Notes: a model not told the origin generated them from the sequence alone. Positions 5,816 through 22,975 are shown, numbered from the stretch's first letter. The stretch: 23,027 nt of DNA from Candidatus Thorarchaeota archaeon (GCA_003345595.1 PRDI01000023.1:1-23027), one strand, 5' to 3'. Made by a program: numbers and translations.

Positions 5816-7144
5816 TTATCGACCGGCAACTTTGATATAAAGCTCCGCTGCGGTCCTGAACACGTCGTCTACACCCTGTCCTGTCAAACAGGATGTCTCG
5901 ATGAAGGCAACTGGGTGTAGCTTCTCGGCTGACCCAAGCCTGACTGCAATGTCTTCAGCTAGTTTCAAGCCTTCTTCTTGAGAAACTGGAGGCTCTCGGC
6001 TGGTCAACAATGCTCCTGCCCGAAGGTCCGTCTTGTTCCCTACAATGACCATTGGTGGACGTTGTCCTGAAACTGCCATGCTCTCTTTGAGCCAGAACTC
6101 GACGCTATCGAAGCTCCATCGGTCCGAAGTGCTGTAGACAATGATGACAACACCTGTTGAGTCATAGAAGGACTTGCGTGTGATCTTGCAGTTGACGGCA
6201 GTGTCAAACGACCAAACTTGAAGCCTGACTCTGTGTGCATCAAGTTCGATTGTTCTTTCAGAAATGTAGGGCTTCTTGTCAGCTTCGTTCTCCGGTTCAT
6301 CCATCGGCTTGAGTCCCGCTCTCTGCATCAGTGATGACTTGCCCACTCCTTCTTCGCCAAGTATCAGTGCCTTCGCAGTTACGATCGGCTTTATGATTCT
6401 TGAGGGCGCCGGACCTGGCCTCCGCGGCTGTACGATGGTCGCCGCACCTTCGCCCGAAGCTCGAGTCGAGGCGGCAGCCTCGGGTGGTGTGACTCTGCCT
6501 GCTGTCTGCGTAGCCGCAGGACTGCCTGCCGCAACGCCCGGCACAGATTGGGATTGCGGAGTCGCCTTTGCCGATTCAAGCCGCTTTTCTTCCGCTGCAA
6601 TGGGTCCCGGAGTTCGTGTCTTGGGAGTCCCAAGTATCTCTTCAGTGCCAGATACCTCGATCTTGATTCCCGGCTTTTCCGTCGTAGAGGCCAGAGCCGA
6701 CTTGGGAGCAAGGAATGAGTCACTGAGAGACTCGACAGCACTCAGTGCCTCCTCAATATCCTTGAACTCAGTTCCTGAAACCACGCCAGCTGGGGCTGGT
6801 ACCGCTTTTCCGCTCGCCTCAACCGCATTGGCTTTGGGTATAGCGGCAGCTACAGTTGTGCCTTCAGGAGGTTTGGAAGCTATCTGTTCTTTGGGCTTCG
6901 GTTTCTCTATACTCTCTCTGGCAACTGGTGTGGGAACAAGAGTAGCAGAAAGATCGCTTGCATCTGCTATTATCATTTTTACCTGGGGTAAACCTATCTT
7001 CTCGAGCGTTCCCTTCAGCACACCGGGCGGCAGCAGCTTCCCCTCTGTTACGAAGTACGTTTCAACGTCAGCTAGGACCTCGTTGAATGACCTGTTGTTG
7101 GTCCTTATCTTCTTCTTGAGGACGCCCTTGTCTCTTACCTCCAA
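5816..7144 (-). CDS. Rab/Ras-superfamily small GTPase domain protein with an N-terminal domain and long Pro/Ala-rich linker
   Basis: C-terminal domain (5816-6373) has G1 GEEGVGKS, G4 VGNKTD, G5 ETSCL and Rab-like elements (LQVW, SFY..GVVIIVYSTSDRWSF). G2 and G3 are degenerate. The frame is open upstream to 7285, so the start may be further upstream. Confidence 0.88.
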   Translation of the reverse strand: MEVRDKGVLKKKIRTNNRSFNEVLADVETYFVTEGKLLPPGVLKGTLEKIGLPQVKMIIADASDLSATLVPTPVARESIEKPKPKEQIASKPPEGTTVAAAIPKANAVEASGKAVPAPAGVVSGTEFKDIEEALSAVESLSDSFLAPKSALASTTEKPGIKIEVSGTEEILGTPKTRTPGPIAAEEKRLESAKATPQSQSVPGVAAGSPAATQTAGRVTPPEAAASTRASGEGAATIVQPRRPGPAPSRIIKPIVTAKALILGEEGVGKSSLMQRAGLKPMDEPENEADKKPYISERTIELDAHRVRLQVWSFDTAVNCKITRKSFYDSTGVVIIVYSTSDRWSFDSVEFWLKESMAVSGQRPPMVIVGNKTDLRAGALLTSREPPVSQEEGLKLAEDIAVRLGSAEKLHPVAFIETSCLTGQGVDDVFRTAAELYIKVAGR

Positions 7145-11463: not shown

Positions 11464-12381
11464 TTAGGGCTTGGGCGGCTTGAGATAGACCTCGAATACA
11501 CCAGTCCAAAGCTGGCTTGTTTCTTCGGCCCTTATGAGGAGGTCACTATTGAAGTTCACTCCGACAGGTCTTGCCTTGCTCTTCTTCCACACGTCTGCGA
11601 ATATAATGGAGTGCACCTTGTTCTGGAAGTCCTCGGTGACCCGCGAGATCATTCTCTCAGTGTACGCTTGGTCAATGCCTTGGGCTGTCAAGTCCGCTGT
11701 TGGCCTGAAAACACGTTCTTTGCTGACAGCTCCTACACTCTTGTCAAAGACATAACCGATTCCCCCAACGAAGTAGAACACTCCGTGAGGAACACTTGGT
11801 TCATCACCGATCACTATGATGTCCCCGCCAGCCAGACTGACATACAGCGGCTCGGCGACGGTGAAGGGAATAGATGCCGCTTCGACCGATACGTCGTCCA
11901 TGCCTAGGTCCCGTTTCAGAAACACACCGAGCGTCTTCACTTGTCTGTCCAGTCTGAACGGCGTCAGGTCCCCGCCAAACACAACGTTTCTGGCTTTCTT
12001 GATGAGAAGGTCGATAATACTCTGACACTTCTTGAGAAACTCAATTCGCTGATCTTGTTTGTTTAGGAGCCGCTTGGCTGAAATCACAGCTCTGACATAT
12101 TCGATGTCCTTGAAATCAGAGATGATTGTCTTGGTCAAGTAGGCGCTGGCCTCAGTCTCGTTGAAACCTTCAAGTAGAGCCAGTTCTTTTGGTATTCGTT
12201 TTCCAAGATGAACCTGGCATGGGGCGTCGCTATCCCGGGCTTTGAAAAAGACACTAATGTCGAGTCCGAGTCGGGGGATGTCTGTGAATTGTTTCACATA
12301 GGGGCCATCTGGCACGATTTCTCGCGCCCTTGACTTCTGATAGATCTGGGCATACCTGGCAAACACATCGGCGCGTGACAT
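11464..12381 (-). CDS. Hypothetical soluble protein (about 305 aa)
   Basis: Long ORF with protein-like composition filling the gap between genes. Likely start is ATG 12381 (MSRADVFARY) after GAAAGTGA; the track extension to 12528 looks non-coding. Confidence 0.75.
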   Translation of the reverse strand: MSRADVFARYAQIYQKSRAREIVPDGPYVKQFTDIPRLGLDISVFFKARDSDAPCQVHLGKRIPKELALLEGFNETEASAYLTKTIISDFKDIEYVRAVISAKRLLNKQDQRIEFLKKCQSIIDLLIKKARNVVFGGDLTPFRLDRQVKTLGVFLKRDLGMDDVSVEAASIPFTVAEPLYVSLAGGDIIVIGDEPSVPHGVFYFVGGIGYVFDKSVGAVSKERVFRPTADLTAQGIDQAYTERMISRVTEDFQNKVHSIIFADVWKKSKARPVGVNFNSDLLIRAEETSQLWTGVFEVYLKPPKP

Positions 12382-12558
12382 TTCACTTTCATCCAGATAC
12401 TGTTGGTTTCGACAACCACTATTATCTCTTGTCGTCAATGGACTCAGAGAGTCTGTCGGCCACAATCTATAAAGACTCGGCGGGCTCCCCTCAGATGCGC
12501 AGTACTCGTCCGTCTGGCAAGGCCCCATGTAGGTCTACCATCACGCAGGTGAGCTAGT

Positions 12559-13738: not shown

Positions 13739-15715
13739 CTAGGATTCTCCCTTAAGTCCGCCTCTCACCTTGAAGCCCTGCGTGAGCATGCCGAGCCTGG
13801 CTCCCGCCGAAACCCAGGTGAGTATACTTGTGATCTCTATGCCCACTACGAGAATCATCAGAGATGTTATGACACCTGCCACAGCTTGCGCAGATGGGAA
13901 GCCCGAGAAGACATAGAATGCATACAAGGCGACAAAGACACCTGCAAGCAGCCCTGCGGCCGCCGCGACTCTCACATATTGACCTTCGACTTGGTGGCCC
14001 TTCTGTAGGATGTCGCTCCCAAGACTTAGGTTAAGTGAGAGAACCATCACAAAACTCAGTGCATAGAGGGCAAAAGTGAGCGCGGCTGTAGTCAGTGCTT
14101 GATGTGAAACAGTCTCGTTGGACGATATCATGACTATCATCAATGCGAAGAGGGCGCTTATTCCGCCCAACACACCTCCTCCCCTGTATGCTCTACCATA
14201 GCCGAAACCTTCTAGCGCGACGTTTCGAACAAGCAAACATGCCAATACAGCGGCCATTATCGTGGGCCCTTGAATGGCGGGAGGAATGCCGGCTAGGAGC
14301 TCAACATTGAACCATCTGTTGGTGGGCCAGATCGCAGGAGGGCCGCTGCCGAATCCGCCAAGCATGAAGAGGACGAACAGGACTGACGCTGCAATGCTGA
14401 AGATTACTGTTAGAAACATCTGGGAGAAATGTGTGAATCTCCTCACTCTGGTTTCGACCATGAGAGTGCCTTGGGTGATAATGACAAGCCCGTAGCTCAC
14501 TGTTATGACTGAGGCCAGAACATAGGGCCCGACGAGCATGAAGACTGCTGCTATTACCAAGGGTATACCGGTGACGATATCTGTACTTCTTGCATATGCA
14601 CTGCCCATTAGAAGCATCACTGCCGCAGGACACATCGTGAGGAAGACGGCCAGCTCATTGGAGCCTTGAAGACCGGTGCCACTCTGTCCCGCTGCGATAA
14701 CGCCAAAGGCCGCCAGAAACACTGACAGATACTTGATACCGCCCCTAACAATGTCCTCGGAGATTTCGGACGCACGAAGCTCTCTGGCACCCAGCTTGGG
14801 CCCCAGCATGACCCAGAACAACATGGCAGCCAGAAACGCTCCAACATAAGGCGGCAGCGTTGCCCAAGTGGCTGTCCAAGTTGTTGGAGTTTCGACGATG
14901 GCGACTGTCCACCACGGCCGCCACACCTGCACTCCCTGAATCAGTACTACTGGGCCATTGAAAGTCGCGATTGCACCCACAAGGAATGCGAGAAAACCTG
15001 AGAGTCCGAAGCCGAACTTGGCTGGGTCCGTGCTTCTTGCATACTCTTTGATGTGTTTTCGGGGAGCCCACCAGTACATGCTTGCCATAAGCTGACCAAC
15101 AAGTAGGATTGCGTATGCGGCAGCGACGCCTATCACAAGGAAGCCATCCTGTGTCAGGCTGAGCGGGAGAACAGCCAAGAAGAATCCGTTCAGAAGTCCG
15201 GCGCTAAGACCATAGTTCGACTTGCTTGAGCTGACGTAGACTACGGAATTCAGCTGCCAAAGAATCACGAATATGGGCCCAACCATCGACAATGTGGTAA
15301 TGTAGTTCCTCACGGCAGTGATCGAGCTTGAGTTGACAGAGGCACCTGTGTAGATTGTGAAGAGCACAACAAGCGCGGCAATGCATGTCGCAAAGGCAAT
15401 TGATGGGAGACTCGATTCGAGGATTCCGCCAAGTCTTCGGAAGCCCCTCAACTGCAGCAGCAAACCGACGGCCAGCAATCCAAAGAATGCAGTCGAGTAC
15501 AGTACACTCTGTTGATATGCCACAAACGAAGCACCAAGCTTGGGGTAGAGCAAGACAATGCCCAAGGGCATCACGTCAGTAGTCAGTAGGGCTATCAAGC
15601 CAAGAGCAGCAGCGGCTGCACCAAACAGTCCACCCACTCCTGCAAGCTTGTCCAGCCGCCTGTTGAGATTCTCCTCTGCGACTGACAGTTCCCTGGAGGA
15701 AAACGCCTGTGCCAT
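13739..15715 (-). CDS. Large polytopic membrane protein of unknown function (about 658 aa, roughly 17-19 TM)
   Basis: Nearly continuous hydrophobic segments. Likely start is ATG 15715 (MAQAFSS) after GGAGA, with TTTAT about 40 nt upstream. The track start at 15916 would overlap the divergent gene. Confidence 0.82.
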   Translation of the reverse strand: MAQAFSSRELSVAEENLNRRLDKLAGVGGLFGAAAAALGLIALLTTDVMPLGIVLLYPKLGASFVAYQQSVLYSTAFFGLLAVGLLLQLRGFRRLGGILESSLPSIAFATCIAALVVLFTIYTGASVNSSSITAVRNYITTLSMVGPIFVILWQLNSVVYVSSSKSNYGLSAGLLNGFFLAVLPLSLTQDGFLVIGVAAAYAILLVGQLMASMYWWAPRKHIKEYARSTDPAKFGFGLSGFLAFLVGAIATFNGPVVLIQGVQVWRPWWTVAIVETPTTWTATWATLPPYVGAFLAAMLFWVMLGPKLGARELRASEISEDIVRGGIKYLSVFLAAFGVIAAGQSGTGLQGSNELAVFLTMCPAAVMLLMGSAYARSTDIVTGIPLVIAAVFMLVGPYVLASVITVSYGLVIITQGTLMVETRVRRFTHFSQMFLTVIFSIAASVLFVLFMLGGFGSGPPAIWPTNRWFNVELLAGIPPAIQGPTIMAAVLACLLVRNVALEGFGYGRAYRGGGVLGGISALFALMIVMISSNETVSHQALTTAALTFALYALSFVMVLSLNLSLGSDILQKGHQVEGQYVRVAAAAGLLAGVFVALYAFYVFSGFPSAQAVAGVITSLMILVVGIEITSILTWVSAGARLGMLTQGFKVRGGLKGES

Positions 15716-15873
15716 CGATAGTCTCTCCGCTGCCGATGATGCCGCTGGGCGGGGCATAAATAGATATCGGACAACGCGCAGCCTATTGGCCCATTTGTTT
15801 GAAAGCAAGTCTTCTGAGTCTTCATCGGCAATTACAAAAGGTCCGTTGCCGTGTTCTTTCAAACGGTGATTCG

Positions 15874-16020
15874 ATGCCCGAATTTGAACTATACGTGAAA
15901 GGAAAGAAGATACCAATGAACCAGTTTGTGAGCAGCATCGTGCATGACGTTCTGATGGCAGTCCTCTCCAACATGAAGGATGTCAGTCTCGACCACATCA
16001 AGAAGATTGAAGTTACGTGA
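15874..16020 (+). CDS. 48-aa protein resembling the C-terminal domain of archaeal/bacterial MobB-type proteins
   Basis: ATG 15874 after GGTGA. MPEFELYVKGKKIPMNQFVSSIVHDVLMAVLSNMK fits the recalled pattern LxVxGKxIPxNxFVxxI..L..L. Lies immediately upstream of the AOR gene. Confidence 0.65.
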   Translation: MPEFELYVKGKKIPMNQFVSSIVHDVLMAVLSNMKDVSLDHIKKIEVT

Positions 16021-18194: not shown

Positions 18195-18950
18195 CTATGA
18201 CTTGATGACTGAGTATACGTTCTGGATACAGCCAGTGAACTCACTCTCAGGATGTTTCAGAACCACGACGTATCTGCTGCCTGCCTCTATCAGTAGCTGA
18301 AGAAGAGGAATTATCGTCGCCACTTTGGTCTGGAACTTGTCCTCTACTTCTGCGATTATCGCCTTGTCCTCGTAGATACTCGGTTTCTTGTTTATGATGA
18401 TGCGGATATCAGGTACCTTGAGCTTCCTAGCCACACTAAGTGTGGCGGCTGTCCCCAAGAGGTCCTGTTCATCAATCCTTGCCACAACAAAAAGAAAGTC
18501 TGCGGTCGCCATGGACAGGAGGGTTTCTCGATCGAGGCCCGGATGTGTGTCGATGATCAGGTAGTCGAGGTTCTTCGCCTTTATCACATCAGTGAAGCCG
18601 CGCTTCAGGTCGCTGACCTCATAGCCCTCCCTCAGTATGCGGGTGATGTCAGTCGCACTCATCGAACTTGGAATAAGGAACAATTTACCCTGCTTGATAC
18701 CCAGCTGGCTTGTAAGATCCATGCAGGCGTCCGTGATATCGCATTCTCCCCTAAGGTAGTCATTCAGAGTGTACTTCAGCTTCTGTCGGCCCAGTCCAAA
18801 TATGACGTGTATCCCCGGAGATGCGACGTCAGTGTCCATCACAGCGACTCTCTTGCCATCAAGTGCCGCGATTGCTGCAAGGTTTGCAGCAATGTTGCTC
18901 TTACCGGTGCCTCCGCGGAAGCTGTGAATGCTCACTATGTCACCTGACAT
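18195..18950 (-). CDS. minD: MinD/ParA-family (SIMIBI) ATPase
   Basis: Deviant Walker A HSFRGGTGKS, A' DTDVASPG, Walker B IIDTHPG and IINK. The start overlaps the upstream stop by 11 nt. Confidence 0.88.
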   Translation of the reverse strand: MSGDIVSIHSFRGGTGKSNIAANLAAIAALDGKRVAVMDTDVASPGIHVIFGLGRQKLKYTLNDYLRGECDITDACMDLTSQLGIKQGKLFLIPSSMSATDITRILREGYEVSDLKRGFTDVIKAKNLDYLIIDTHPGLDRETLLSMATADFLFVVARIDEQDLLGTAATLSVARKLKVPDIRIIINKKPSIYEDKAIIAEVEDKFQTKVATIIPLLQLLIEAGSRYVVVLKHPESEFTGCIQNVYSVIKS

Positions 18951-20268
18951 GGGTCATCACCCTTTCATTCTCCCATCGAACATATTCCCCTAGGGAATGT
19001 AGAACTTCGAATATACGAGATGTCTGTATCTTGGTCTTGTCGGATATCTCCTTTATAGAGTAAGCGCCCGTGCAGTAACGCCACACGACATCAATCACTC
19101 CGAAGTCCTTCTTGGGCATTCCGACCACCTCCAGGTAGGCAGAGAAGCGTTCATTCCTCTCTTCCATCACCGGGAACAGTTTGGCGATGTGAGCGGCACC
19201 CTTTGATATGAGGTGGGCTAGCACTTCGTTTGTCTGTTCGCAGGAAAGACCCGCCTTTTCGTGCAGTTCCATCACTGTGATCTTCTCGTCAAGAAGCCCA
19301 AGAATCTTAACGGCATTTGTGCGGAGCTCTGCAGGCAGACCAGCCAATACGCGCTTTGAGGTGCTCATTACTCCCCCATCTTGGACGACTGGCAAAACAA
19401 CATCAAAGTCGTAGAAACCGGCCGTTTCTTCCAGACGTACTGGCTGGACCTTTTTCATGTTCCTCAAGTCGAGCTCGGAAACCATCCTCAGGTATGGTCC
19501 GACCAGTTTCATGAGTTCGGCATTGGACTTAGCTGCATTCACGACAAAAGCGGAGTAGATGTCGTTGTCCGTGCGCGTAATGAAGAATGATGTCAGAGGA
19601 TCGAGACTCGTGTGAACAGTCATGATTCCTTTGCCCGTTTGTGTTGTCAGACTGCCCAACAAATCGAGCAATGCTTCAAGCTCGTGTGCTCTCAGGTTCG
19701 AAGCCAAGATGAAACCGTCGCGAGTCACTGCTAAACTCCTCAGAACATCATGGCCCGTTTCAACGCTTGCCATTGCCAGCTTGAGTTGTTTCAAGTCCTC
19801 CCTCGGCAAGAGCCCTGTCTTGTATCGTCTTGCGAGCCCTGGGATGCCGTCGAACTTCTGAAGGAGCGCCTCCACTGTGTCGGTGAATGTCTTGAACATG
19901 CGAATGTCTGCTTGTTCCTTCTTCAGTTCTGAGTAGTACGTGCTGACAAACTGGTCAGAGAGGTCTCTCAGAAACACTCTGTATATCTCAGTGCTATCAT
20001 CCTGAGAAACGAGGGCCACGAAGAAGAGGTCTCCATTACGCTCCCAGACAAACTTGTTCGAAGCGAATGATACGACCCTAATACGCTGTTCGCCAACCTG
20101 TTCAGCGATTGAACCCATTGCGGATAGAAAAGCTGCGACCAGCTCGTCCAACTTCTTCGTGCCCGTCGCGCTGTAGTGAAACAGAGGAATGCCAGTGTCC
20201 CTGAGGATAATGACTTCTTTGACCAAGGTGTCTTCCCCGAATAGCGGCAGCAACCACTGCTTCTTCAC
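18940..20268 (-). CDS. Longin + roadblock-like + tandem winged-helix protein (NPRL2-like)
   Basis: Residues 16-140 show a longin pattern (IIL..TGIPLFHYS...LVAAFLSAM...F...Y...F..F). Residues about 155-265 show a roadblock pattern (SLAVTRDGFILAS). Two C-terminal wHTH-like repeats follow. Probable real start is TTG 20226. Confidence 0.8.
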   Translation of the reverse strand: MKKQWLLPLFGEDTLVKEVIILRDTGIPLFHYSATGTKKLDELVAAFLSAMGSIAEQVGEQRIRVVSFASNKFVWERNGDLFFVALVSQDDSTEIYRVFLRDLSDQFVSTYYSELKKEQADIRMFKTFTDTVEALLQKFDGIPGLARRYKTGLLPREDLKQLKLAMASVETGHDVLRSLAVTRDGFILASNLRAHELEALLDLLGSLTTQTGKGIMTVHTSLDPLTSFFITRTDNDIYSAFVVNAAKSNAELMKLVGPYLRMVSELDLRNMKKVQPVRLEETAGFYDFDVVLPVVQDGGVMSTSKRVLAGLPAELRTNAVKILGLLDEKITVMELHEKAGLSCEQTNEVLAHLISKGAAHIAKLFPVMEERNERFSAYLEVVGMPKKDFGVIDVVWRYCTGAYSIKEISDKTKIQTSRIFEVLHSLGEYVRWENERVMTHVR

Positions 20269-20273
20269 CGGGG

Positions 20274-20289
20274 TTATTATATCTTCTCA
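20274..20289 (-). promoter_or_regulatory. Candidate BRE/TATA promoter for the longin-roadblock-wHTH gene and minD
   Basis: Minus strand reads GAGAAG-ATATAATAA in the 54-bp intergenic gap. Confidence 0.45.
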
Positions 20290-20322
20290 GATGATTTGGT
20301 GCGGGAAGCCGGCCAGGCTTTG

Positions 20323-21258
20323 CTACTGGTCCTGCGCTACCGTGACCTCAACTAGTTTCCAGCTGACTGCGTTTCCAAGCCTACCCAGGACTTCAAAGAG
20401 CTTCTCCGCAGTCACACCAATCTTCTCACTGACCTCCACCACGGATTTGCTTCCGGTACATAGTGGTTTTGCCCGGTTGAGTATCTGATTGTCCTTACTG
20501 GGCAGACCCACAAGATCGAGATAGATGTCGAATCGAGCGTCTTCCTCTTGGAGCACTGGGCACATCTTGGATATTCCGACGACTCCCCATATGGTCAGGT
20601 ATTCGATGACCTCAGATATCTGCTCGGCTTCGAAACCTAGTGTCTGACTCATCTCGTAGATTGATATCTTACCGTCAATCGACTCAAGTATCCTGTTGCC
20701 AAACCCTCCGAAGTCTCTGTGAAACTGATCCAGAAGACCCATTGAGTCCGAAGCAGCATCGAATGCCAGCTGGTCCAATCTCGGCACGACGAACGAACTC
20801 AGGCTCGATGTAACTAGGAGTATGCCCTCATAGAAGGAGAATGACCTCTTGACCTCCTGCCCGAAATCCTCGAATGCATCCTCAACATGGATATCCTTCT
20901 TCAGTTCGCGCCCATATCGCGTTAGAAACCTGTGACTCAAATCTCTGAGTACAGCCCTCAAGACTCTCTCTGGTGCACCTGACTCCACGAGGAAAATGAA
21001 CAATGCTTCGGATTCAGTCTGATAGAGTATCTCCGAGCCTTCGAAGGAGAGGCTCTGAACGGAGCGTTCGCCGAATTCTGTGGCAAAGCTCGATATCGCT
21101 GATAGGAAACCCGACAACAGGCTGTCAAGTTTCCGCGTTTCATGAGGAGAATAGTGGAAGAGTGGAATGCCTCCTGAAGTTATGATCATGAACTCATTAA
21201 CGCGCAAGCGTCCGGTCAACTGCGGCATCTCCCGATTGAGCGTCAAAGGTGACGCCAC
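20323..21258 (-). CDS. Longin + tandem winged-helix protein (NPRL2/NPRL3-like paralogue)
   Basis: Longin pattern (MIITSGGIPLFHYS...LLSGFLSAISSFA) and wHTH repeats (ILESIDGKISIYEMS...YLTIWGVV; LCTGSKSVVEVS). Aligns without gaps to the N- and C-terminal parts of the downstream gene. Start uncertain within 21207-21258. Confidence 0.8.
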   Translation of the reverse strand: MASPLTLNREMPQLTGRLRVNEFMIITSGGIPLFHYSPHETRKLDSLLSGFLSAISSFATEFGERSVQSLSFEGSEILYQTESEALFIFLVESGAPERVLRAVLRDLSHRFLTRYGRELKKDIHVEDAFEDFGQEVKRSFSFYEGILLVTSSLSSFVVPRLDQLAFDAASDSMGLLDQFHRDFGGFGNRILESIDGKISIYEMSQTLGFEAEQISEVIEYLTIWGVVGISKMCPVLQEEDARFDIYLDLVGLPSKDNQILNRAKPLCTGSKSVVEVSEKIGVTAEKLFEVLGRLGNAVSWKLVEVTVAQDQ

Positions 21259-21281
21259 ATTAATGTATCTGAGAGGCCATA

Positions 21282-21292
21282 TCTATAATGGT
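21282..21292. promoter_or_regulatory. Candidate shared TATA element for divergent genes
   Basis: TCTATAATG on + and CATTATAGA on -, located between the divergent starts. Confidence 0.3.
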
Positions 21293-21349
21293 CCTGTCTA
21301 CGAAATGTCCATATTGCGGCCCGAGCGTGCACAGGGCCATCTTGCGTGT

Positions 21350-22975
21350 GTGACGAGCGTGCTCGAGTACAGAGAGTTCCCCATCAAGGTCGCGTTCTAC
21401 TATGTGCTTTTCTCTGCTATGCTTGCGTATGTCATATACTCAAGCAGCCGGCTGATTCTTGGTACCATGTTTCCCTCTTTCGGAAGCGGGAACTTGGGTC
21501 TCTTGGGATTCGGAATTCTGGCTGCTGTCCTCACTCTGTTGCCGGCCGGTGTCTTGGCAGATCACACGAGGTATCTGTATGTGATTAGTACGCTAGGTGC
21601 GTTAGCTCCGTTGCTTCTGGGTATGGCTATTGTGTTCGCAGGATCTCCCGGCCCAGACACTCCGACAATCGAAACCTCATTTACGATTCTTCTTTTCTCT
21701 GGAGCCGCTTTCTCTCTTGTGAGTTGGTGTGTTCAGCTAAACAAGACGGTCGTGGCGCGCTTTCGCGGCAGAGTCGCTGCCTCCTTCCTAGCAGTGTCCT
21801 TGGTAATCTTCGGAGTCTATTCTGCCTTGGATTCAGCCGGTTTCAGCCTGTACCTAATGCACATGCCAATTCCAGAGATTATAACCATTGCAGCAGTCCT
21901 CACACGACTTGCTTTCAGACCTTGGAGATGGTCACTGCACAAGCTAGCAGTCAAGGGGGAAGCAAGGTCTTACTTCATTCCGACGCTCCTTGTCATGGCT
22001 GCATACATACTCTGGTACTTCGGCACCCAACTGAGCATCAAAGAAGTGTTCAGGTTGGCCGTCGACCCCTCGTACGTTTCGCTCGGCCAGTATTCCGGTC
22101 TCTCCCTTTACGAGCCGGGGTTCATGGCTGTGGGTGTTGTATTCGCGGGACTGATAGCAGACACTAAGGGCAGAAAAACAGCTCTCACTTTCGGTGTTCT
22201 ACTGCTTGGCCTGCTATCGATCTTTGGTTCCCTTGCATATTACAATGCTGAGGATGGCTCTGCATACCTGAGTGCGGCTCCCCTGCTCATTTCTGAGCGT
22301 TTTGTTGAGGGCTTCCTTCTGGGTCTAATGCTTCTACTCATATGGGCCGAGCTGGGCTCTCCAAACACGAAGGGAAGACGCATTGCCGCCATGTGGATAT
22401 TCTTCATCGGATATATCGCTCTGTTGTTGGCTGTCTCGTTGGGGGTTTGGTTTGGCATCGACTGGTATGCACCAGATTGGGTGCGGCGAGCAGGGATACA
22501 GTTTGCAATCCTACTCACATTAGTCACATTGTACTGGTCAGCACCGCTACCTGAGATTCTGGGAAAGGAACTTGAGATGGAAGACCTTTCACTCGATTTC
22601 GATGAGAAGCTTGTCCGGCAGACTGCAGAGGCATTCGTGGGAGCAGAGGATCTCAAATCAATACGAAGCCAGCTTGATATTCTTGGCAGTACCGAAGAGC
22701 TGAGCGACAAGGATATGGATGAGATACTCGGCCCAGACTTCGACAAGACGCTTCCGTTGGGTGGAATCCCCGGCGTCGGTTCAAAGATGGAGCAACGCCT
22801 ACGAGAAGCCGGGTATGAGTCAGCTGCTCAGCTTGCTGGAGAAACCCCTCAGAGGCTGTCGGAAAAAGTGAAGGGTCTCACTCCGGCCAAGGCAGAGAAA
22901 ATCCTTGAAGGAGCACGGGTGGCCGTGAAGAAAGCGCTCAAGTCGAAGTCGAAAAAGGAAGGAGGACGAGGCTAG
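21350..22975 (+). CDS. MFS-fold 12-TM transporter fused to a C-terminal helix-hairpin-helix (RadA/Rad51 N-terminal-like) domain
   Basis: Twelve hydrophobic segments with MFS motif A in both halves (AGVLADHTR, AGLIADTKGRK) and RFRGR / TKGRR loops. An acidic linker leads to LGGIPGVGSKMEQRLREAGYESAAQLA...GLTPAKAEKILEGA. Start is probably GTG 21350 or ATG 21305; the track start at 21167 overlaps the divergent gene. Confidence 0.82.
   Translation: MTSVLEYREFPIKVAFYYVLFSAMLAYVIYSSSRLILGTMFPSFGSGNLGLLGFGILAAVLTLLPAGVLADHTRYLYVISTLGALAPLLLGMAIVFAGSPGPDTPTIETSFTILLFSGAAFSLVSWCVQLNKTVVARFRGRVAASFLAVSLVIFGVYSALDSAGFSLYLMHMPIPEIITIAAVLTRLAFRPWRWSLHKLAVKGEARSYFIPTLLVMAAYILWYFGTQLSIKEVFRLAVDPSYVSLGQYSGLSLYEPGFMAVGVVFAGLIADTKGRKTALTFGVLLLGLLSIFGSLAYYNAEDGSAYLSAAPLLISERFVEGFLLGLMLLLIWAELGSPNTKGRRIAAMWIFFIGYIALLLAVSLGVWFGIDWYAPDWVRRAGIQFAILLTLVTLYWSAPLPEILGKELEMEDLSLDFDEKLVRQTAEAFVGAEDLKSIRSQLDILGSTEELSDKDMDEILGPDFDKTLPLGGIPGVGSKMEQRLREAGYESAAQLAGETPQRLSEKVKGLTPAKAEKILEGARVAVKKALKSKSKKEGGRG

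Follow-up and report, generated by a model that had tools for sequence, protein, structure and literature searches.

Two adjacent genes in a 23,027-nucleotide stretch of Candidatus Thorarchaeota archaeon DNA (GCA_003345595.1, PRDI01000023.1:1-23027; hereafter the window, meaning the whole stretch analysed) encode paralogous proteins, one short and one long, which are predicted to combine an N-terminal longin domain with two C-terminal winged helices and which are followed by the gene for a ParA/MinD-type P-loop ATPase. Across genomes, the constant unit is one longin-tail protein together with this ATPase. We consider the chances about even that the genes form a vertically inherited Asgard module, in which one or two longin/two-winged-helix proteins would be co-expressed, and most likely work, with the variant ATPase. 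An initial annotation of the window had interpreted the pair as resembling NPRL2 and NPRL3; this left out the constant partner, and the module is better described as an NPRL2/3-like scaffold than as an equivalent of GATOR1, which it is not.

The linkage between the longin genes and the ATPase recurs across several lineages. In the window, the ATPase appears to be translationally coupled to the long gene, its ATG lying 11 nt inside the end of that gene in a start-stop overlap. The order short, long, ATPase, with the same overlap, was found in 29/30 loci of different Thorarchaeota genomes (the 30th contig ends before the ATPase), and identity across these loci is 80-86% for the ATPase, by far the best conserved of the three, 45-63% for the long protein and 53-72% for the short one. 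In Hermodarchaeota and a second family of the Thorarchaeota order (f2), all six loci have the long gene adjacent to the ATPase (here 53-59% identical) and the short form is not present; in five genomes of one Thorarchaeota genus (G152, G167, G227, G248 and G284) the short gene leads directly into the ATPase without a long form. A survey of 301 Asgard genomes located ATPase orthologues in 62 of 76 genomes of family f1, in the only genome of f2, in 17/19 of f12 and in the only genome of f28, and in none of the other Asgard families (including 0/68 and 0/28 in the two largest). The families that bear the ATPase are those that possess longin-tail proteins, and in 12 f1 genomes, two of them 92% and 97% complete, neither the ATPase nor the longin genes are present; two apparent mismatches between ATPase and longin genes are contig-end truncations. 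Retention and loss of the ATPase go hand in hand with those of the longin genes. The module as a whole is single-copy and syntenic, present in 64/76 sampled f1 genomes and in 19/19 Hermodarchaeota, and the surrounding genes are metabolic and housekeeping ones, with no defence gene among them.

Within the genus that lacks the long form, the closed genome CP070658.1 (L007 6001-9072) has an ATPase open reading frame (ORF) truncated to 167 aa; the 448-aa ORF that comes after it is unrelated and has no match in Pfam. That this second ORF might be a diverged long paralogue was ruled out by hhalign, which gave a probability of 0.2%.

By its sequence, the ATPase is a diverged member of the ParA/MinD superfamily. 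It scored 81 bits against the minD_arch model (E 5.8e-23; cut-off 202) and 56 against minD_bact (cut-off 213), and archaeal MinD-1 (1hyq) matched it at E 1.5e-12; both model scores are under the MinD cut-offs, and its Walker A motif reads RGGTGKS and not KGGxGK[ST]. The Walker A arginine is invariant, as part of [FY]RGGTGKSN, in 37/37 readable orthologues, Hermodarchaeota included, as are DTD..SPG and DTHPG. An arginine in place of the first Walker A lysine has been described for the ParA-wHTH system of the ConB2 assemblage, a mostly archaeal system whose ParA gene is coupled to one or more winged helix-turn-helix (wHTH) genes (Li, Burroughs and Aravind, bioRxiv 10.64898/2026.10.19.760177). 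A further ConB2 feature is a PG motif downstream of sensor-1, for which both SPG (after DTD) and DTHPG are candidates here. A search with PADLOC gave the ATPase a weak and partial match to PDC-M28B (E 9e-8) and returned no match for the longin proteins.

The relationship between the two longin proteins themselves is clear. BLASTP aligned them in two blocks, 157 N-terminal residues at 34% identity with two gaps near the block end (E 5e-25) and 113 C-terminal residues at 37% identity without gaps (E 4e-25), which in the long protein are separated by approximately 130 additional residues. E-values of this order (~1e-25 each) are far beyond chance, and the two genes are therefore the product of a duplication, as the initial annotation had proposed; the blocks it described, of about 127 N-terminal and 73 C-terminal residues, are in fact somewhat longer. 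Counted from its first GTG, the short ORF has 311 aa, its likely start being the ATG at 21228 or a later one. The long ORF has 442 aa counted from GTG, but since homologues start with MVKE and a TTG at 20226 sits directly before VKE, the long protein probably has 428 aa. Near-length searches returned 249 homologues of the short form, all named ones from Candidatus Thorarchaeota, and 161 of the long form, whose named members are also from Candidatus Thorarchaeota; the named homologues of both are annotated as hypothetical proteins, and their consecutive locus tags point to side-by-side genes in many genomes. No NCBIfam family covers either longin protein. In a maximum-likelihood tree of 291 shared columns, rooted on the family of a second tandem pair (described below), the short clade falls outside the long forms of Thorarchaeota and Hermodarchaeota (SH-aLRT 92); the tree, with its unresolved base and a long-branch warning from the program, does not date the duplication.

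AlphaFold2 models built on the family alignments of the short (A1) and long (A2) forms predict the domain composition of both proteins. The short-form model (mean predicted local distance difference test score, pLDDT, 82.7; predicted TM-score 0.78) comprises a longin domain and two winged helices, and the long-form model (pLDDT 77.7) a longin domain, a roadblock domain and two winged helices. Over 45 family members, the Pfam matches were TrmB in 44, Fuz_longin_1 in 41, HTH_47 in 39 and HTH_NPRL3 in 9, with Fuz_longin_1 the top longin match and TrmB and HTH_47 the strongest and commonest matches of the tail. The two tails differ in charge. That of the short form has a family mean net charge of -7.9 and an isoelectric point (pI) of 4.8, and the helix that matches a recognition helix carries a mean of -3.3; this strong acidity makes DNA binding by the short form unlikely. 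The long-form tail is near neutral, and some members are basic (pI up to 9.6).

How far this architecture resembles NPRL2/NPRL3 depends on what is compared. When the whole short model was searched against the PDB with Foldseek, the top 11 matches were all GATOR1/SEAC chains (E 1.4e-7 to 1.3e-5, 350-455 columns), read from chain lengths and the list of NPRL2 chains as NPRL3 first, followed by NPRL2 and yeast Npr proteins, and these outranked single-domain longins such as Sec22b, although the TM-scores to the GATOR1 chains are only ~0.3. The N-terminal longin feature of NPRL2 and NPRL3 is present in both Thorarchaeota proteins; taken alone, the longin domain is generic, other longins being as near to it as those of NPRL2/3. 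With the whole models as input, VIA-align returned the longin and roadblock domains only and no winged-helix tail. For the long model, the best Foldseek matches were the tri-longin Rab guanine nucleotide exchange factor (RabGEF) subunits Fuzzy, Inturned, Mon1 and Ccz1 (E ~1e-8), which is explained by the fact that those proteins also carry a second longin-type domain.

The tail gives a similarly graded picture. A profile of the tail alone, widened by adding diverged Asgard relatives (A4), found human NPRL2 at rank 4 among PDB sequences (HMMER, E 0.0013), the match consisting of three collinear stretches that hold ILPYIDG...LLYYGVV (residues 190-238), QKYPV (at ~328-332, within 309-332) and LYTGCHSYDEI (344-370). 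The motifs IDG...GVV, K..PV and CTG..S..EI, which the initial annotation had likened to human NPRL2 segments, align to these same places. Between the aligned winged helices NPRL2 is longer by ~70 residues, as would fit one additional winged helix in NPRL2 and agrees with the suggestion that the Thorarchaeota proteins have one fewer. However, generic wHTH proteins equal or outscore NPRL2 against the A4 profile, the best match being the archaeal MJ223 (E 3.2e-5), the short-family profile alone reached NPRL2 at a non-significant E of 0.9 in the PDB, and single-sequence phmmer searches with both proteins against PDB sequences yielded noise only. The Pfam families NPR2 (PF06218) and NPR3 (PF03666) matched neither protein at E up to 1, and translating the entire genome in six frames yielded no match to them at E up to 10. 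HTH_NPRL3 matched weakly (best E 1.8e-4 among the 45 members) and also matched control genomes, and some diverged relatives match HTH_NPRL3 (E ~5e-5) or the C-terminal end of NPR2 (E 7e-4). Accordingly, of the proposed resemblance to NPRL2/NPRL3 in architecture and motifs, the full-length structural matches and the collinear tail stand, whereas the curated models are silent and a generic wHTH protein outscores NPRL2; likewise, a preference over generic longin and wHTH proteins is seen for the whole short model but not for its longin domain alone or for the tail profile. The likeness is one of domain architecture together with weak collinear similarity of the tail, and no curated model places the family with NPRL2/3.

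Features related to a function as a GTPase-activating protein (GAP) were looked for in both families. No invariant arginine was found in the longin loops of the short or long family alignments. The beta4-beta5 hairpin, which we infer to correspond to NPRL2 Arg78, reads WE[KR]KGD in the long forms of Thorarchaeota (Lys in 42/45; WERNGD in this genome), is acidic in the short forms, and reads YES[RQ]x in Hermodarchaeota and YEALG in f2. In both paralogues beta2 opens with G-x-P, which is close to, though different from, the GP motif reported for GAP longins (PMC12290439). DEPDC5/Iml1 was not found: PF12257 (IML1) was unmatched at E up to 1 in this genome, which is 83% complete.

The short-long heterodimer that the initial annotation had envisaged is weakly supported by structure prediction, with an interface score (ipSAE) of 0.51 against 0.00 for the best control, a mark reached by 58/80 solved complexes and 2/110 mismatched pairs, although scores up to 0.60 account for just 7 of those 80 complexes yet for both mismatches and so are wrong more often than right. 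At least 77% of the contacts agree between runs, and the partner pLDDT is at least 77. Since some lineages keep only the long form (Hermodarchaeota) or only the short form (one Thorarchaeota genus) beside the ATPase, an obligate heterodimer is unlikely for the family, and the proposal survives only as a possible, non-obligatory pairing.

Table 1 Positions of the longin pair, its domains and the flanking genes in the window
Feature	Coordinates	Strand	Description
Short paralogue (P0002)	20323..21258	-	ORF; longin, helical linker and two winged helices
Longin domain, short paralogue	20899..21201	-	Residues 20-120; beta-beta-alpha-beta-beta-beta-alpha
Tandem winged-helix tail, short paralogue	20347..20736	-	Residues 175-304; predicted from model; TrmB and HTH_47 matches; strongly acidic
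Long paralogue (P0001)	18940..20268	-	ORF; longin, roadblock and two winged helices
Longin domain, long paralogue	19924..20217	-	Residues 18-115; predicted from model
Roadblock/LC7-type domain, long paralogue only	19477..19803	-	Residues 156-264; second alpha/beta domain in model
Tandem winged-helix tail, long paralogue	18970..19371	-	Residues 300-433; predicted from model and BLASTP; near neutral
ParA/MinD-type P-loop ATPase (P0003)	18195..18950	-	251 aa; Pfam AAA_31, ParA, CbiA; Walker A RGGTGKS
Multi-pass membrane protein	21167..22975	+	Acidic linker, C-terminal helix-hairpin-helix (HHH_5 E 5e-10); transcribed divergently from short gene

On the other side of the pair lies the membrane-protein gene, which is found upstream likewise in CP070658.1 and CP070761.1. 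Its N-terminus was seen in 17/32 other Thorarchaeota loci, where the available flanks are short, and in 0/6 loci of Hermodarchaeota and f2; the helix-hairpin-helix (HhH)-tailed protein is a conserved neighbour in Thorarchaeota only. Because the longest ORFs of the membrane protein and the short paralogue overlap at 21167-21258, both real starts are probably internal, that of the membrane protein probably lying downstream of 21258. Elsewhere in the window, at 5816-7144 (-) and 11 kb from the longin pair, a 442-aa protein contains a Ras-family GTPase domain (residues 258-434; Pfam Ras E 4.7e-21) preceded by a ~250-aa N-terminal region with no Pfam match. Several small GTPases with weak Gtr1_RagA matches are encoded on other contigs of the genome, and none adjoins the longin pair. 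Two further ORFs of the window, at 13739-15916 (-; 725 aa) and 11464-12528 (-; 354 aa), had no Pfam match at E up to 1e-4.

More distant relatives of the pair were also observed. A second tandem pair of longin/two-winged-helix genes lies on contig C112 (L011 124-978 and 1129-1959, +) and encodes proteins of 284 and 276 aa that are 37% identical to each other. This pair is homologous to the first over its full length (hhalign probability 96%, E 3e-9, 236 columns) and is widespread in Thorarchaeota; its profile gave no NPRL2 match. A Roadblock/LC7 gene is located ~0.8 kb downstream of it on the opposite strand (L011 2790-3200). Helarchaeota and Jordarchaeia encode diverged proteins that carry this two-winged-helix tail, and there no ParA gene adjoins them. 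Two such tail relatives, in a Jordarchaeia genome (L048 5001-6485) and a metagenome-assembled genome (L050 5001-6479), lie between a CBS-domain gene and an uncharacterised gene of 180-195 aa, in flanks that share DUF1152 and a proteasome subunit and hold no ParA gene.

To our knowledge, all longin and roadblock domains characterised so far form dimeric platforms that serve nucleotide switches, established examples being MglB-MglA, Ragulator-Rag, Mon1-Ccz1-Rab7, GATOR1-RagA and SRX-SRbeta. By analogy, the longin domains of the Asgard proteins, with the roadblock where it is present, would dimerise into a platform of this kind, as a short-long heterodimer in the genome studied here and as a homodimer where only one form exists. 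The switch bound to it would be the ATP-dependent ParA/MinD dimer, whose nucleotide state the platform might read, set or localise. In such a scheme the acidic winged helices of the short form would act as protein-binding rather than DNA-binding surfaces, and in Thorarchaeota the module may act at the HhH-tailed membrane protein encoded next to it. That the longin/roadblock platform directly binds and regulates the co-encoded ATPase, a member of the SIMIBI class, is a tentative proposal that we would on balance doubt. Several points weigh against the module as a functional unit of this kind. The mechanism draws on gene linkage and folds, and adjacency of genes does not amount to contact between their products. 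The longin/roadblock platforms known to us regulate small TRAFAC GTPases, and we know of no solved case with a ParA/MinD ATPase. The small GTPases encoded elsewhere in the genome could be the real clients, and the near-neutral tail of the long form may leave room for DNA binding. Finally, the view advanced for related ParA-wHTH systems is one of immunity (bioRxiv 10.64898/2026.10.19.760177).

This last view offers the most direct alternative: the module could be a ParA-wHTH system against selfish elements, in which the winged helices recognise invader DNA, a ConB2-type ParA coats or sequesters it, and the longin-like domain adds multimerisation. The hallmark arginine in 37/37 ATPase orthologues speaks for it, as do the weak, partial PDC-M28B match (E 9e-8) and the preprint's mainly archaeal ParA genes coupled to at least one wHTH gene, some of them with a profilin-longin-like fusion. 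However, the immunity reading fits the parts list and not the behaviour of the module. A single-copy unit in housekeeping synteny, found in 64/76 sampled genomes of its family and 19/19 Hermodarchaeota and with an ATPase 80-86% identical across genera, is unlike fast-evolving, patchy defence genes; there is no effector or defence gene nearby, the longin proteins have no PADLOC match, and the short-form tail is strongly acidic. Nor does the accessible text of the preprint mention Asgard archaea. We regard an immune role as unlikely. The winged helices could also belong to ligand-sensing transcription regulators, with the longin/roadblock part as sensor, the winged helices on DNA, and the ATPase either unrelated or a partition-type partner on DNA. 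The lead of TrmB (44/45) and HTH_47 (39/45) among the tail matches, MJ223 as the best PDB sequence match of the tail profile (E 3.2e-5) and the near-neutral to basic tail of the long form (pI up to 9.6) would agree with this; the charge of the short form, -3.3 on the recognition-type helix and -7.9 on the tail, would not, and the proteins matched structurally over the full length are scaffolds that use their winged helices for binding protein. We know of no regulator that joins longin and wHTH domains, which we also count against this explanation, and we find it highly improbable, though the long form may have a plain transcription-factor role.

A different possibility keeps the scaffold but changes its client, the short-long pair being a forerunner of GATOR1, that is, an NPRL2-NPRL3-like heterodimer acting as a GAP for a Rag/Gtr-like GTPase encoded elsewhere, with the ATPase a mere operon neighbour. 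Much of the structural evidence is compatible with it: the full-length Foldseek preference for NPRL3/NPRL2, the tail collinear with NPRL2, the weakly supported heterodimer (ipSAE 0.51 vs 0.00 for the best control), the asymmetric basic beta4-beta5 hairpin of the Thorarchaeota long forms only (Lys 42/45) and the small GTPases with weak Gtr1_RagA matches in the genome. Yet the longin loops have no invariant arginine, and the hairpin, Lys-based in Thorarchaeota, is RN here and differs in Hermodarchaeota and f2. Pfam NPR2 and NPR3 are unmatched, DEPDC5/Iml1 was not found in the 83%-complete genome, and no small GTPase gene stands beside the pair, the Ras-family gene of the window being 11 kb off. 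Moreover, some lineages retain a single paralogue, short or long, with the ATPase. We therefore judge a GAP of this type to be distinctly unlikely.

Longin/roadblock platforms hold a central place in eukaryotic membrane traffic and nutrient signalling. In the module described here, an NPRL2/3-like architecture is tied to one highly conserved ATPase by operon structure, co-retention and co-loss. If the platform does bind and regulate this ATPase directly, the ancestor of Thorarchaeota and Hermodarchaeota would have put an NPRL2/3-type scaffold to use with an ATP-driven prokaryotic switch; longin platforms would then not be limited to small GTPases, and the GATOR1-like architecture would have a concrete, testable pre-eukaryotic role.

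Parts of the module have been catalogued before: Liu et al. (bioRxiv 10.1101/2020.10.19.343400; Nature 2021) described an NPRL2-like family of Thorarchaeota with a few members in Lokiarchaeota, and Li et al. described ParA-wHTH systems of archaea, some with longin-like fusions. The architecture and distribution described for the former match the longin pair, which is probably that family; the C112 pair is an alternative candidate, but its profile has no NPRL2 match. The accessible text of Liu et al. makes no mention of a tandem pair, a roadblock insert or a ParA/MinD neighbour. The preprint of Li et al. probably covers the ATPase side, and its accessible text contains no link to NPRL2/3 and no Asgard archaea. 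A literature search for a link between roadblock or longin domains and MinD/ParA found nothing relevant beyond that preprint. What our analysis adds is the explicit connection between the two descriptions, which neither text, where accessible, draws, and evidence that the module behaves as a housekeeping rather than a defence unit.

Compared with the ConB2 ParA-wHTH system, the module has in common the Walker A arginine and a ParA gene coupled to a longin and wHTH gene (29/30 loci in Thorarchaeota, 6/6 in Hermodarchaeota and f2), but the preprint proposes an immune role and describes rapidly evolving wHTH proteins, whereas the present module shows conservation and synteny and is found almost throughout its clades. 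NPRL2-NPRL3 (yeast Npr2-Npr3, the core of GATOR1/SEACIT) is likewise made of two paralogous subunits with an N-terminal longin and, as predicted for the Thorarchaeota pair, a C-terminal winged-helix array in the same order, and the IDG...GVV, YPV and xGxxSxxEI...W motifs of the tail are weakly collinear with human NPRL2. It differs in having its own middle domains where the Thorarchaeota long form carries a roadblock; the Thorarchaeota pair, for its part, shows no conserved arginine finger in the family alignments, no DEPDC5 in this genome and no Pfam NPR2/NPR3 match at E up to 1, and its gene partner is a ParA/MinD ATPase instead of a Rag GTPase. The tri-longin RabGEFs (Mon1-Ccz1, Fuzzy-Inturned, HPS1-HPS4) are heterodimers of paralogues, as the Thorarchaeota pair may be, and the match of the long form to them spans the longin and the second domain; they possess three longin-type domains and no winged helices, as opposed to the one longin, one roadblock and two winged helices predicted for the Thorarchaeota long form. 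Lastly, the clients of MglB-MglA and Ragulator-Rag are small TRAFAC GTPases, whereas the NTPase linked to the longin pair is a SIMIBI-class ATPase of the ParA/MinD type.

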